40,930 nucleotides of DNA from a virus (Duplodnaviria > Caudoviricetes). The stretch covers positions 1-40,930 of the IMG/VR virus record IMGVR_UViG_3300020045_006991; one strand, given 5' to 3'. Numbering within the stretch: the stretch's first letter is position 1; each line of letters opens with the position of its first letter. The notes under the pieces are model-generated. The model was not told the DNA's origin, made no database searches, and saw only the letters and a list, made by a program, of their open reading frames with translations. Below are positions 3,901-40,784 of the stretch, piece by piece. The position numbers and the translations under genes are program-made.

Positions 3901-4005
3901 ATGAAAGCACTAATCAAAGCAATCAAAGAAATGCTTGAATTCGATTTGCACTTATGCGCAATTGAAAGCGTTCAGCCGTTTTATCATCGTGGTGCGCACA
4001 AATGA
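3901..4005 (+). CDS. Hypothetical 34-aa protein
   Basis: Strong AGGAGG RBS; ATGA-coupled to the next ORF. Confidence 0.55.
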   Translation: MKALIKAIKEMLEFDLHLCAIESVQPFYHRGAHK

Positions 4006-4145
4006 AAGATATTTTATATATTTGCAGACTAATAAGTGTAATTTCAGCAGTTTGTTTTATGATTGTTGGCGCGACTATGGATATAGTGCAGTTGTGTTTT
4101 TTAGTTGCAATTTTAAGCGGGCAAGTAGCAGGACAGTTTAAATGA
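4002..4145 (+). CDS. 47-aa hydrophobic (one or two TM) protein
   Basis: MKDILYICRLISVISAVCFMIVGATMDIVQLCFLVAILSGQVAGQFK*; ATGA overlaps at both ends. Confidence 0.55.
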   Translation: MKDILYICRLISVISAVCFMIVGATMDIVQLCFLVAILSGQVAGQFK

Positions 4146-7261: not shown

Positions 7262-8589
7262 ATAAACTCCCGAATAATAACTATGCCAGCAGTACCAGCC
7301 CCGCCGGCACTTGCGGCTGCTACATTAGTGGATACGCCTCCGCCACCACCCGCTCCTTGTCCGGTTGCCGGGTTCCCCGCCGATGAAACTGGGGACGAGG
7401 TTGTTGCAGCTATAGTTCTTCCGCCCATACCCATTTTAGACGCTCCTCCCTCCCCTCCCATTGCCGACGATGTAAAAATAAGTCCATGTTTTCCGTCTGC
7501 CCCTTGGATATTATAAATATTACCTCCAGTGCCCGCGCCGCCAACACCTACACCGGTGCCTGACGATATTTGAGGTACCGTGTAACTTACGCCAACCTTG
7601 CCTGCTGTACCCCCCGTCGCACTGATAAAAGCCCCAAATGAGCTTGTGCCCCCCGCCGTTCCATTCGCTCCTGATACGCCTGCACCTGCCGCGCCAACGG
7701 TGACAGTCACACCGGAAAATCCAGATGTTATTCTGCTTATGCCGTACCCTCCCGCGCCAGCTCCTGTCCCCGCGCACATTTGCGTAGTCGTAGTTGTTGC
7801 TAATGACCCGCCGCCGCCGCCGCCACCACCCTGCACCTCCACCTCGACCTGTTTAGTCCCTGCCGTTGGCGTATAGGTAAAAGTACCGGCTGTCGAAAAA
7901 ACCTGAATAGATGCCATGCCTCCGTTTATGGCAGGGTTTAAAAGAGTCCACGTCGTTGATGTTGCGTCGTAAATTAATTGCGCAAATTTTGGCATATCGC
8001 CAACTGCCAAAGCTACGCCGTTTTGCTTTGTAATAGTACGCGCGGTTAGCCCATTGGGACTAAAAGTAGCCCCGATAATCGCATTAGTGCCAACTGCCCC
8101 AGTATCAATGACAACGGTTAGACCTTCAGTTAATGCGCCCACAGTAGGGACAAAAGTGGCAGTATAAGCACTCGTTGTGCCACCTGCGTCCGCATACCAG
8201 TCTGGGCTAATTTGCGCCCATCCTGCGCCACCAGTATCTGGATTAGTCATGTTAGCATCGGCTGTGCATATCCATAACCCCGATAAATTCGCTTTGCGTA
8301 AAACCGCACCTATCGGATACCCACTAATAGCGGTCTGGAACGTGGCATCATAAAGAAACGTGCCGCCGCTGTTCAAAAACTTAATGACGTTCGATTGCTC
8401 AAACAGCAATCCGTTCATGTCCGCGCCCCACGGCGGAATGCCTCCGCTGGTTTTTGGGGTAAAATTTAACAGCCCAAAACCTTTGTCATAGCAGGCTTTG
8501 CCGTCCCCCAATGCTGGGTCGAGAATTGGGATTGCGTTTTTAGTGCCGTTAAGTGCAATTGCTCTTTGTATTTTTGTAGGTTCTGTCAT
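7258..8589 (-). CDS. Tail fibre protein with Gly-rich C-terminal domain
   Basis: N-terminal GF...P...GGIPP.G.DMNG.L baseplate-anchor motif; GGGGGGG/GAGAGG repeats. Confidence 0.85.
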   Translation of the reverse strand: MTEPTKIQRAIALNGTKNAIPILDPALGDGKACYDKGFGLLNFTPKTSGGIPPWGADMNGLLFEQSNVIKFLNSGGTFLYDATFQTAISGYPIGAVLRKANLSGLWICTADANMTNPDTGGAGWAQISPDWYADAGGTTSAYTATFVPTVGALTEGLTVVIDTGAVGTNAIIGATFSPNGLTARTITKQNGVALAVGDMPKFAQLIYDATSTTWTLLNPAINGGMASIQVFSTAGTFTYTPTAGTKQVEVEVQGGGGGGGGSLATTTTTQMCAGTGAGAGGYGISRITSGFSGVTVTVGAAGAGVSGANGTAGGTSSFGAFISATGGTAGKVGVSYTVPQISSGTGVGVGGAGTGGNIYNIQGADGKHGLIFTSSAMGGEGGASKMGMGGRTIAATTSSPVSSAGNPATGQGAGGGGGVSTNVAAASAGGAGTAGIVIIREFM

Positions 8590-8776
8590 TGTCTTTATCC
8601 TGTGTAAGCATTTTTCGTTTTTTAGCCTTAAGGTTTTTTTCTCTCGCCCTAAGCATAAGTTTTTTTAAACTATCGTCTGCATTGTTGAATTTTTCTTCCC
8701 ATAATAAACGCCTTGCCGATAATGATGCTTGTATCGTTTCCTCTGGTACTTTTTTACCTTTAGATATTAATTTCAT
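8549..8776 (-). CDS. C-terminal part of the GIY-YIG endonuclease (+1 frame)
   Basis: Frame extends upstream as KHTEESKAKMK, a NUMOD3-like motif, to the upstream stop. Confidence 0.65.
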   Translation of the reverse strand: MKLISKGKKVPEETIQASLSARRLLWEEKFNNADDSLKKLMLRAREKNLKAKKRKMLTQDKDNDRTYKNTKSNCT

Positions 8777-8801
8777 TTTAGCTTTGGATTCTTCTGTATG
8801 C

Positions 8802-9392
8802 TTAAAAGCAACTCATGAATAATCTATGCTTTTCTTTTTGTTGTTCTGATTGTTTTCTTCCAATAAGAGACAAAGAAATATTTATTTTTTGCAATTCAGT
8901 TCTTTTTGTTCCTGTTCTTGTTAATGATGATTTTCTTATTGCATCATCTGATTGCTTTCTTCCTTTTAGAGAATTACTCATCTTATTCCTATATTCAATC
9001 GACGTAACAGCGATTAAATGCGCCTCCCTATGCTCATTAGTCCATATTGATTTTTTCCCTAACCGATTTAAACTTATTTTTTTACGGGTTTCTTCTGAAA
9101 CTTTTTTATTTAATCCGCCATTAACTAAGTTATAACCATTTGGCGATAAAGTATTATGTTCTTTTATTAAAAGCTCTTCCCAATAATTGGATTCATCAAT
9201 CGTTAAATTATCTTTTAAAACCTCGTGTTTAAAATTATTCCATCCATGTTTTTTTATTGCGGATGTAAAAGCGGTATTCACTTTACATGATTTATGGGAA
9301 TTACATCTTCTTTTATAATTGTTCGTTTGCCCAATGTAACTTTTACCATTCGGGCTTGTATGCTTATAAACACAATAATTTAATTCTGACAT
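8802..9392 (-). CDS. Free-standing GIY-YIG homing endonuclease with NUMOD3-like repeats
   Basis: CVYKHTSPNGKSYIGQT...R...H...E...GYNL; SEETRKKIS repeats; ATG at 9392. Confidence 0.88.
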   Translation of the reverse strand: MSELNYCVYKHTSPNGKSYIGQTNNYKRRCNSHKSCKVNTAFTSAIKKHGWNNFKHEVLKDNLTIDESNYWEELLIKEHNTLSPNGYNLVNGGLNKKVSEETRKKISLNRLGKKSIWTNEHREAHLIAVTSIEYRNKMSNSLKGRKQSDDAIRKSSLTRTGTKRTELQKINISLSLIGRKQSEQQKEKHRLFMSCF

Positions 9393-9486
9393 TATCAATT
9401 CCTTAAATTGACACCTTAGAAAAATAACGGAAGCCAGTAAGGTGCTGGTTTTCGGGTTCGATGCCCTATCCGTTATGCGTATTATA
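9393..9486 (-). ncRNA. Structured leader RNA 1 (C4-like three-way junction) with -10 element
   Basis: TATAAT 9481-9486; stem 9469-9476 with 9424-9431; loop CACCUUA complementary to UAAGGUG (9412-9418) and UAAGG (9401-9405). Confidence 0.7.
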
Positions 9487-18277: not shown

Positions 18278-18985
18278 TTATTCAATTAATTTAGTTCTGT
18301 GTTTCATAGCAAAAGCAATTAATTTCTTCTTACGTTCTTCATACCCAATACCAGCCATTAAATACGATTCATTTCTTCTGCGCACAATTGCCAACAAAAT
18401 AACTTGTTCATTAGATAATTTACTTCCCCATTCCATTTGAGCTGCAATATCATCGTCATTGCTGTTTAATATGCATTGATAAAGCATATTGGTTTCTTCA
18501 TACTCTTTGTCGCATTCAGCATGATCGACGCATAGATTACAACAGCCCTTACAGTTGTTTTTATTGTACTCAATATCCTTATTTCTCGTAATAAAACCAG
18601 TCATGCCTTGTGCCATTTGACAAGCAAACGCCTCAGATTTATTAGCACCATCGCGCTGTTTTTTCTCTAACCTATGATAATCATTAGTGGTTAGTTTTTG
18701 CGGCAATACAGAATTAATGGTTGTTATTGCATCATTAAAAGACACATCAAAATATTCGCCAATTTTTCTTTTTGCTTTTAATAATTCATGAACCATTGAT
18801 TCTATTAAATACCAATTTTCTAGCTCATAAGAAACCCAATAATTAATAGATGCCTTCCCTGATTGAGTCTCTATTGTTCTTATGCGTTGTAAAGGATTTA
18901 TTGAGCATCCTATTTTTACATGGTTGCTATCAGTTTCTATGGCATAAACATAGCCAACGCATTTACTTACTAATTCAGTTTTCAT
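18278..18985 (-). CDS. T5orf172-like (GIY-YIG superfamily) protein with antirepressor-like C-terminus
   Basis: GYVYAI...VKIGCSINPLQRI...E...H...GEYF; C-terminal N...L..GI.YEERKKKL. Confidence 0.8.
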   Translation of the reverse strand: MKTELVSKCVGYVYAIETDSNHVKIGCSINPLQRIRTIETQSGKASINYWVSYELENWYLIESMVHELLKAKRKIGEYFDVSFNDAITTINSVLPQKLTTNDYHRLEKKQRDGANKSEAFACQMAQGMTGFITRNKDIEYNKNNCKGCCNLCVDHAECDKEYEETNMLYQCILNSNDDDIAAQMEWGSKLSNEQVILLAIVRRRNESYLMAGIGYEERKKKLIAFAMKHRTKLIE

Positions 18986-19087
18986 TTTACTTGCCTTAAA
19001 TAGCTCGCCATTAAAGTTGATACCATCGGGAACGCTGGCAAGTTGCTACGGCTAATTAGACCGCCCGATGGTGTTTACATTATAGCA
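18986..19087 (-). ncRNA. Structured leader RNA 3 with extended -10 promoter
   Basis: TGcTATAAT 19079-19087; 9-bp stem 19022-19030 with 19064-19072; loop ACUUGCCA complementary to 19003-19010 and 18989-18995. Confidence 0.65.
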
Positions 19088-27492: not shown

Positions 27493-27625
27493 AAAAAGCC
27501 CTGCGTGTCAATCGCTGTAACAATTGACTAGAAGCAGGGCTTTATAAAATTTGTGTTAGCGGCTCAGTGTTACAGCACAATCCGATAACGTGCGTTCAGT
27601 ATATCGGTTATTCGTTTACTGTCAA
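27493..27625 (-). promoter_or_regulatory. Moron promoter plus attenuator-like leader
   Basis: TTGACA-16 bp-TATACT (27625-27598); terminator stem 27495-27504 with 27534-27543 followed by a U tract; loop complementary to 27568-27576. Confidence 0.65.
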
Positions 27626-36946: not shown

Positions 36947-37713
36947 TTTTTAGTCTCCCATCTGGCTTTATTTTTTGCGGCTATAATTTCGCGATTAGCT
37001 TCACGATATGCTTTGTTCCTAGTGGCTATAATTTCGCGGTTTTCATCTTTGTAGGCTTTAGCTTTTGCCGAGATAGATTCAAAGTTAGCCTCATAGTAGG
37101 CTTTTCTCTGTTCGGCAATGGATTCTTTGTTTTTCTGTTTGTAGGCTTTTTTGTATGCCGATGCTAATCCCTTATTTTTTTCTCGGTATGCTTTTTTTTG
37201 TTCCGCTATTTTTTCTTTGTTAGCATCAAGATAATACTTCCTTTTTGGCTTTCTATTTTCATAAATCACTTCTTTATTCTTTTCACGATAGGCTTTGTTG
37301 TAATCCGCAGCCGCTACTTTATTGGCTTTATAATATGCCTTGGTTCGTATTGCGTGGGCTACTTTATTTGCTGAATAATATGATGCTGATTTCGCCTTAT
37401 CCCTAGCAATCCTTTCTTCGCCATAAATACCAACAGTTAAAACTCCTTCGCCGCCTAGTGTTAGGTTATACCCGCCTTTGCCAAGCGTATTAAACTTTTC
37501 AATCGCCTCCATTTCAGCTAAACACAGAAGTTCCCAATTATCACATTCAGCTAAAACTGTTAAAACTACGTTTTCTTTGCCGTATTTTTTAATGGCGCGT
37601 TGACAGGCAGTTTTCTTTTGCCTGCAATGTGCGTTAAAACGCTCGTTTGCGGTCTTTGAGGTAATTCCGATGTACTTTTTGCCATTAGGGAATGACAGTT
37701 GATAAAGTTGCAT
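36925..37713 (-). CDS. Free-standing GIY-YIG endonuclease with helical KAYREKNKE repeats
   Basis: LYQLSFPNGKKYIGIT...RF..H...E...GYNLT.GG; start revised to ATG 37713. Confidence 0.88.
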   Translation of the reverse strand: MQLYQLSFPNGKKYIGITSKTANERFNAHCRQKKTACQRAIKKYGKENVVLTVLAECDNWELLCLAEMEAIEKFNTLGKGGYNLTLGGEGVLTVGIYGEERIARDKAKSASYYSANKVAHAIRTKAYYKANKVAAADYNKAYREKNKEVIYENRKPKRKYYLDANKEKIAEQKKAYREKNKGLASAYKKAYKQKNKESIAEQRKAYYEANFESISAKAKAYKDENREIIATRNKAYREANREIIAAKNKARWETKKCLVSTS

Positions 37714-37816
37714 GATAAATCCTTGAACTTGGATTATTGAACAGAAAATTAATGTGGCTTGTCCTTGTTCAAGGGGTTTTCGGACTCGATTTCCTAGCCA
37801 CGTTGTTATTATAACA
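37714..37816 (-). ncRNA. Structured leader RNA 2 with extended -10 promoter
   Basis: TGtTATAAT 37808-37816; stem 37796-37804 with 37751-37759; CCUUGAACA complementary to 37737-37743 and 37721-37728. Confidence 0.7.
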
Positions 37817-40722: not shown

Positions 40723-40731
40723 AAAATATTA

Positions 40732-40773
40732 CTTATTTGTGTTACAATGAGCATACATAATAACACAAATAAG
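40732..40773. promoter_or_regulatory. 13-bp inverted repeat with divergent extended -10 elements
   Basis: CTTATTTGTGTTA-16 bp-TAACACAAATAAG. Confidence 0.65.
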
Positions 40774-40784
40774 GCAATATTAAA

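Follow-up and report, generated by a model that had tools for sequence, protein, structure and literature searches.

The C4 RNA of phages P1 and P7 (RF01695) carries two different antisense loops, each with a target of its own, and we know of no description of a self-complementary second loop in either C4 or the CI RNA of phage P4. Both are small RNAs made from the leader of their own target transcript that use short-loop pairing to control antirepressor or replication genes (available parts of PMC12197685 and PMC4825925); the targets of CI are an upstream seqA and a downstream seqC (same parts of PMC4825925). In T-even phages, a hairpin holds the ribosome-binding site (RBS) of the homing-endonuclease genes I-TevI, I-TevII, I-TevIII, segB and mobE, and a late promoter inside the hairpin frees it (PMC2988022, in excerpt). 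A short leader isoform of the Gifsy-1 RNA IsrK acts in trans on its own long mRNA (PMC4825925, parts as above), and in the cobalamin riboswitch the L5-L13 contact is a loop kissing the loop of an RBS-bearing hairpin (PMC5028336, in part). The GACG loop of murine retroviruses forms a kissing homodimer of two base pairs (accessible sections of PMC7357161).

The leader RNA described here, a member of the Rfam family int-alpA, resembles C4 and CI in that it is the leader of its own target transcript, uses short loops and has antirepressor and replication genes downstream. Unlike C4, it has one guide loop with a doubled downstream target, and its P2 loop has no downstream target; unlike CI, it has no upstream target and both of its sites lie downstream. 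The int-alpA leader, as we read it, works like C4 and CI but does not belong with either. As in the T-even genes, the RBS lies inside a hairpin (P4), but here the promoter precedes the entire structure, standing ahead of P1, and the RBS hairpin is read by a distinct guide loop. The self-complementary P2 loop recalls the GACG loops of SL-C and SL-D in MoMuLV and MoMuSV, and palindromic dimer-initiation loops in general; however, the retroviral loops dimerise a viral genome for packaging, whereas the predicted role of the dimer in this leader is translational control of bacterial or phage mRNA. A short isoform acting in trans, as in IsrK, is also proposed here, and the predicted kiss onto the RBS-bearing hairpin is of the riboswitch kind, although IsrK activates by strand competition and the riboswitch is ligand-gated and works in cis. 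Neither matched copy 1 in sequence or fold in Rfam.

The analysed window, 40,930 bases, is a complete virus record with direct terminal repeats at its ends and with terminase, portal, capsid, baseplate and tail genes. The copy 1 cassette lies on the minus strand within the tail module, with a DUF2612 gene on one side and a GIY-YIG/NUMOD3 gene on the other. In the sole related phage locus that we found (L411), a tail-fibre gene directly follows DUF2612 and the cassette is absent, so the block of about 900 bases made up of promoter, RNA and nuclease is an insertion. The closest relative of the copy 1 nuclease (L383, 56% identity) occupies a different genomic site and is preceded by the same kind of leader, with P2 and P3 loops that differ from those of copy 1. 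A leader of this type was absent from the two Vibrio phage relatives examined, and when the leaders of copies 1 and 3 were searched by blastn in 50,697 records of cultured phages, only chance-level pieces came back. A run of T near 8806 precedes a frame-shifted NUMOD3-like continuation of the nuclease gene, which is likely to be its frameshifted tail; the frame break could mark either a decaying gene or a slippage site. Elsewhere in the window, long near-perfect intergenic hairpins stand ahead of small ORFs at 27495-27560 (minus strand) and 40730-40780 (plus strand) and are unrelated to the int-alpA fold.

An earlier note on this DNA had proposed for copy 1 a TATAAT box, a three-way junction, a loop CACCUUA and two sites complementary to that loop, and every one of these is present on the minus strand with the coordinates and pairings given (Table 1). 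The promoter is a -10 match only, with neither a -35 element nor a TG extension. The final 2-3 nt of site 1 are shared with the 5' arm of P4, and the Shine-Dalgarno sequence UAAGG lies 8 nt ahead of the AUG at 9392. No intrinsic terminator was called after P1.

Table 1. Features of the three leaders and of the copy 1 nuclease gene, in window coordinates.
Feature	Position	Strand	Details
Copy 1, -10 box TATAAT	9481..9486	minus	2 bp past the DUF2612 stop codon
Copy 1, three-way-junction core, int-alpA member	9424..9476	minus	P1 (8 bp), P2, GAAAA, P3; covariance model
Copy 1, P1 arms	9476-9469/9431-9424	minus	read on the minus strand
Copy 1, P2 hairpin	9454..9466	minus	palindrome UCGA in loop, 9461-9458; predicted loop-loop dimer interface
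Copy 1, GAAAA linker	9453-9449	minus	between P2 and P3
Copy 1, P3 hairpin	9434..9448	minus	guide loop CACCUUA at 9444-9438
Copy 1, target site 1	9411..9418	minus	UAAGGUG at 9418-9412; UAAGGUGU, up to 8 bp with guide; after pyrimidine linker
Copy 1, P4 hairpin, 8 bp	9393..9413	minus	loop exactly UAAGG = site 2 = Shine-Dalgarno (9405-9401); pairing read
Free-standing GIY-YIG/NUMOD3 homing-endonuclease gene, 196 aa	8802..9392	minus	Pfam GIY-YIG E 1.4e-7; PHROG homing endonuclease
NUMOD3-like stretch, other reading frame	8549..8812	minus	NUMOD3 E 0.0012, below curated cut-off
Copy 2, leader	37706..37813	minus	TGnTATAAT; core 37804-37751; P2 loop UCGA as in copy 1; guide CCUUGAAC
Copy 2, targets	37743-37737 and 37728-37721	minus	P4 37737-37715; AUG 37713; 262-aa homing endonuclease gene downstream
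Copy 3, leader	18983..19084	minus	divergent, same layout; TGnTATAAT; P1 19072-19064/19030-19022
Copy 3, palindromic loop CUAAUUAG	19059-19052	minus	guide AACUUGCCA
Copy 3, targets	19009-19004 and 18995-18989	minus	AUG 18985; T5orf172/MUG113 gene downstream

The second core that the note had reported, at 37799-37775, was likewise borne out together with both of its compensatory changes: 20 of 25 positions are identical to copy 1, where shuffles would give 0.01 matches. The promoters of copies 2 and 3 carry a TGn extension. The suggestion that other cassettes repeat the layout holds for copies 2 and 3 as far as the arrangement goes, but covariance modelling recovers only copies 1 and 2: our model R1, run over the window, scored copy 2 at 34.9 bits and left copy 3 unmatched, and Rfam reported neither copy as int-alpA at E<=10. 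Each of the three guides of this genome scores highest against its own leader. The copy 3 type has a single relative among the loci found (L410, approximately 537-644), which is 94% identical to the copy 3 leader but stands ahead of a Rha gene rather than T5orf172; between the two, a G-U pair at site 1 becomes U-A and the palindrome of the loop is kept. A search of viral contigs for relatives of the copy 3 protein yielded no loci.

Copy 1 matches int-alpA (RF02996) over all 71 model positions (1-71) at 43.7 bits against a cut-off of 35.8 (E 6.3e-6) and has its three-way junction with UAG and CGAAAA linkers. The fold, which the note had set beside the C4 and CI RNAs, is thus already catalogued under another name. 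No C4-type family was among the 11 Rfam matches to copy 1 at E<=10, and none matched at E<=1 in 20 homologous loci; int-alpA matched 11 of these loci at E<=1, five of them above the cut-off. The RF02996 model stops at site 1 and is without P4 and site 2, and the genomic int-alpA matches carry the same two downstream sites. The element is confirmed as real, conserved and a member of a catalogued orphan family. Its fold is known through Rfam.

The family is typed 'Gene; sRNA' in Rfam and takes its name from a position between an integrase gene and an alpA-like gene; reportedly it was first described in the supplement of one published study. Copies in E. coli do have this placement, which plays no role in the Rfam cut-off, but copy 1 does not, being flanked by the DUF2612 and GIY-YIG genes. 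We found no function for int-alpA in print. The string 'alpA' is absent from the available main text of PMC5737381, and the parts available of PMC12370729 and PMC13612085 list int-alpA without investigating it and give gene order only, respectively.

Homologues were gathered in three sets. Set A was collected with patterns that fix the P2 loop (190 matches, 142 unique and usable, 75 passing a structure-only filter, 63 clusters), and set B with two patterns that leave this loop free, together with genomic Rfam matches (191 matches, 117 passing, 103 clusters). The held-out set C consists of matches to model R1, itself built from 98 sequences, in genomes of two phyla, those of loci with the titles Planctomycetaceae and Nitrospirales (62 places, less 6 without a locus and 2 that set A had included; the remaining 54 were processed and 44 parsed, giving 43 clusters). 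The clusters are related, so the z values given below overstate independence, though relatedness also makes the swap control stricter. Over 98 homologues, both-sided compensatory changes occur in 14 of the 15 core pairs. Core cells are paired in 89% of cases, compared with 61% in shuffles and 34-45% in slid controls, although the structure was derived from these same sequences.

Taken by itself, copy 1 has its more stable fold on the opposite strand (-20.9 kcal/mol, z -3.7) and not on the sense strand (-13.6 kcal/mol, z -2.2), and the orientation of the RNA therefore rests on the family, in which internal P1 mismatches favour G-U over A-C by 42:3 across 162 members; the corresponding ratio in P3, 17:11, is non-decisive. 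We also considered a tRNA T-arm mimic on the opposite strand, and rejected it because the P2 loop is far more variable than a T-loop and the P1 G-U excess favours the sense strand.

Within 45 nt of the core in set B, 36 of 72 TATAAT-like hexamers lie 9-14 nt before the UAG junction, a peak that would place the transcript start at P1. The E. coli copies, which are of a GACG type, lie closely behind an integrase gene and may be cut from a longer transcript. At a few loci (L020 and L036; also L018, L101 and L146), the place of TATAAT immediately before the core is taken by TATAAATA or TATGAATA. We take these elements to resemble a T4-type late promoter, which suggests that the RNA module adopts the promoter class of its host phage. 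Sampled genomes carry the family in 13 of 151, 11 of 151 and 19 of 135 cases in three bacterial groups, each count including the centre genome, and a copy of the GACG type has a match in 189 of 5426 complete E. coli genomes, three of which were inspected.

We scored every guide on its own 48 downstream bases and on the downstream bases of all other members. Own targets outscored swapped partners in set A (z 17.2, 63 clusters), set B (z 19.5, 103 clusters) and set C (z 12.4, 43 clusters), exceeding all 20,000 permutations, so the loop-target co-variation that the note had anticipated is present in three separately gathered sets. With GC-matched swaps, the own target outscored the swapped one in 89 of 100 cases. 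The second-best site is enriched as well (own against swapped, 12.0 vs 8.6, 13.1 vs 9.9 and 13.3 vs 9.7 in the three sets), and the 48 nt upstream show no enrichment (20.8 own vs 20.3 swapped, set B). By score thresholds, two clear sites are present in 137 of the 162 members of sets A and B, the remaining 25 being without. Among the 137, the guide-target helices average about 6 bp, the sites are mostly 10-17 nt apart and the distance from the junction to site 1 is held at mostly 13-17 nt. Site 2 overlaps the Shine-Dalgarno window in 119 of 121 members, a figure that is partly built in, as starts were sought just after site 2. Both sites pair with identical guide positions, and hence one P3 loop cannot hold both simultaneously.

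P4 forms between the spacer that separates the two sites and the bases right after site 2, so that site 2 and the Shine-Dalgarno sequence are presented in its loop. For members with a site spacing of 9-18 nt, a P4 stem of at least 4 bp can form in 106 of 120, compared with 51% of swaps (z 16.9).

The second distinctive element is the loop of P2. Its central dinucleotide is self-complementary in 91 of the 103 clusters of set B (0.34 expected from column frequencies; 25 at the mirror position) and in 64 of 75 distinct non-GACG hairpins; the outer pair is self-complementary in 41 of 49. The same holds for 42 of 43 held-out clusters in set C, a result that is not built in because model R1 treats loop columns independently. 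Of the 52 odd-sized loops in set B, 44 contain a 4-nt palindrome displaced by half a base to the 3' side of the hairpin axis, compared with 2 that have one at the mirror position; in set C the off-axis palindrome is present in 24 of 30, against none. Among the 51 even-sized loops of set B, a self-complementary dinucleotide is shifted 3' of the axis by one base in 42 and occupies the mirror position in 11. The 4-nt palindromes in set B comprise 12 different sequences of 16 possible, and 22 of its 103 clusters have a GACG tetraloop.

Over the 48 nt that follow, the P2 loop showed no target (9.68 own vs 9.52 swapped), and a cis partner was rejected within 300 nt (2.59 vs 2.52). A DNA operator or cruciform was likewise discarded as an account of the palindrome, which lies off the dyad axis. 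Adjacent bases are unable to pair with one another, no cis partner lies nearby and the palindrome is offset from the axis; the P2 loop is most simply explained by pairing with a second copy. A dimer step through P2 is strongly indicated by these patterns, although a kiss of 2-4 bp would be weak by itself. The loop presumably resembles the HIV-1 dimer-initiation loop. We suggest that P4 and the self-complementary P2, both missed in the first reading, would explain why one loop has two targets.

Comparison across the family establishes, at the level of sequence, the P1-P4 helices, the pairing of the guide to both sites through shared guide bases and the self-complementarity of P2. We propose, with belief and doubt in about equal measure, that P2-P2 kissing puts two identical guide loops on both sites and represses translation as the RNA accumulates. 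Two RNA copies would join through P2, and of the two identical P3 loops in the dimer one would land on site 1 and the other on the Shine-Dalgarno loop of P4. The count would point to a dimer, because one guide cannot fill two sites and a dimer brings exactly two guides. Judging by the fixed distance between junction and site 1, one partner would seem to be the junction of the mRNA itself. The other would be a second copy, probably a stable remnant of about 55 nt ending at the base of P1; such a partner, ending before the G-poor linker and so without target sites, would match the two-to-two count. This short form we only infer, from the G-poor, U-rich linker after P1.

A lone new transcript would be translated, its single 6-bp contact being weak or caught by site 1, and the downstream gene would be shut off once RNA accumulates. 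The expected outcome is a pulse of nuclease, antirepressor or replication protein on cell entry followed by shut-off, as with P1 C4 and P4 CI. By sequence the sign of regulation could be either, as the predicted strengths of the two sites are nearly equal (-8.3 vs -8.1 kcal/mol; of 116 members, 60 have the stronger site 1 and 37 the stronger site 2). We favour repression for two reasons: the RBS would be covered once both sites are filled, and the downstream genes belong to the classes kept down by C4 and CI. The leader would then be an RNA-only concentration sensor, a homodimeric repressor reading a tandem operator on its own mRNA with a code composed of kissing palindrome and guide loop, a description that we think stands an even chance of being correct. 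We found no description of this mechanism in the literature searched, whose coverage excludes most subscription papers.

The notion of a reprogrammable, orthogonal code fared well in part: different cassettes have different loops, each best on its own leader in this genome, but the orthogonality is not absolute. Some co-resident copies share both loops (L290/L307, L296/L305 and L437/L446). One genome (G160) has six copies with near-identical promoters (L414, L419, L421, L423, L424 and L425), four of them with a Bro-N, Rha or KilA-N gene downstream. No two of the six have the same P2-guide pair, and the three pairs of copies that share a guide each differ in P2; the probability of this arrangement by chance is about 0.4, and it is only suggestive of a two-part code. 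In the same genome, one downstream gene is truncated and one copy has decayed targets. A further locus (L436, G233:C35:164-337) carries a tandem pair of identical cores at a distance of 120 nt; no matching site goes with the first, and the second is followed by three matching sites with no obvious RBS or gene. These cores are possibly stand-alone, trans-acting copies for the same-guide cassettes of that genome.

The downstream genes are of several kinds. Among 116 downstream ORFs, many of them cut short by the end of the locus, 42 encode nucleases (HNH, GIY-YIG or endonuclease VII-like), 10 replication or partition proteins, 6 antirepressor, Rha or regulator proteins, 6 methyltransferase-like proteins, 3 integrases and 3 virion proteins; 5 belong to unknown families and 41 have no match, where the tally takes a lower-ranked named family if the best match is unnamed. 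Antirepressor, Rha, KilA-N and replication genes are all represented. The earlier description of the cassettes as nuclease morons thus fits 42 of the 116 ORFs, but with 28 of other named kinds the family is not nuclease-specific. In three E. coli satellites at yicC (L407-L409, approximately 3996-4085), a GACG-type copy lies right behind the integrase gene and ahead of a variable gene of 280-310 aa with no Pfam family above cut-off, which is followed by HTH, antA/B and icd/ash genes.

The main rival to repression retains the same dimer and reverses the sign. The lone transcript would be locked by a cis kiss of P3 on the Shine-Dalgarno sequence in P4, and a P2-docked partner would take site 1, or two mRNAs would swap loops onto each other's site 1, freeing the RBS; the leader would then be a threshold switch, activating the gene as genome copy number rises. 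Homing is most useful during replication, which counts in favour of such a switch. The P4 loop is within easy cis reach, site 1 is slightly more often the better match by score (81 members, against 36 for site 2) and it adjoins or overlaps the 5' arm of P4 in 55 of 119 members. In 14 of 137 members a P1 of at least 9 bp is combined with a linker of at most 5 nt, which suits a trans partner for site 1, and a precedent exists in IsrK, a prophage RNA that activates its own long transcript in trans (PMC4825925, available parts). However, a short partner would let both sites fill, which is the off state, and accumulation from a constitutive -10 promoter would be expected to switch on nucleases and antirepressors in lysogens. 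We regard activation as unlikely, although a serious contender.

An arrangement confined to one molecule could also account for the two sites. The P3 loop would alternate, during or after transcription, between site 1 as a decoy that leaves the RBS open and site 2, which closes it, and the P2 loop would serve something else, for example protein binding or RNA stability. Purely cis states are possible in a crude reach model, in which the own loop can contact site 1 in 101 of 116 members; both contacts are geometrically plausible in most members, the junction-to-site-1 distance is conserved, and a loop kissing an RBS-bearing hairpin is an established switch in the cobalamin riboswitch (PMC5028336, in part). 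Members with a longer P1 tend to have a shorter linker (rho -0.62), a trend not in favour of a simple cis decoy; the distance to site 1 correlates with neither P2 size nor P3 size, and linker geometry does not decide between cis and trans. A switch in cis leaves P2 unexplained, as a loop that is self-complementary through at least 12 sequences, lies off the hairpin axis and has no cis partner, and we find this reading rather doubtful.

It is improbable that the dimeric RNA acts mainly on transcription or decay, with loss of ribosome loading leading to Rho-dependent termination of the operon in the manner of P4 CI. CI does cause premature termination (PMC4825925, available parts), and in the E. 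coli satellites the RNA heads a long operon that includes the HTH regulator, antA/B and icd/ash genes. Site 2 is nevertheless tied to the RBS hairpin of the first gene, the leader lacks a CI-like upstream target, and termination may be a mere consequence of a translational block. That the nuclease uses the RNA as guide or cofactor, or that the repeats and palindromes act as DNA (operator or target site), seems very improbable: the share of nucleases downstream and the likeness of 4-bp palindromes to DNA sites speak for it, but the nucleases have unrelated folds, genes of other named kinds are common, only 3 of 24 relatives of the copy 1 nuclease have the leader, P1 prefers G-U to A-C and the palindrome is off the dyad axis.

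The GACG-type copies make repression by a P2-kissed dimer testable in a laboratory strain of E. coli, and a part of about 95 nt with two recodable loops may be of use in synthetic biology. If that reading is correct, the orphan Rfam family int-alpA would acquire a function, and gene control would gain an added form in which an mRNA senses its own kind through dimerising. Such control would account for the tolerance of free-standing nucleases, antirepressors and replication genes that have their own promoters, and int-alpA would be a module of about 95 nt that travels in phages and satellites, ahead of risky genes, across three or more bacterial phyla.
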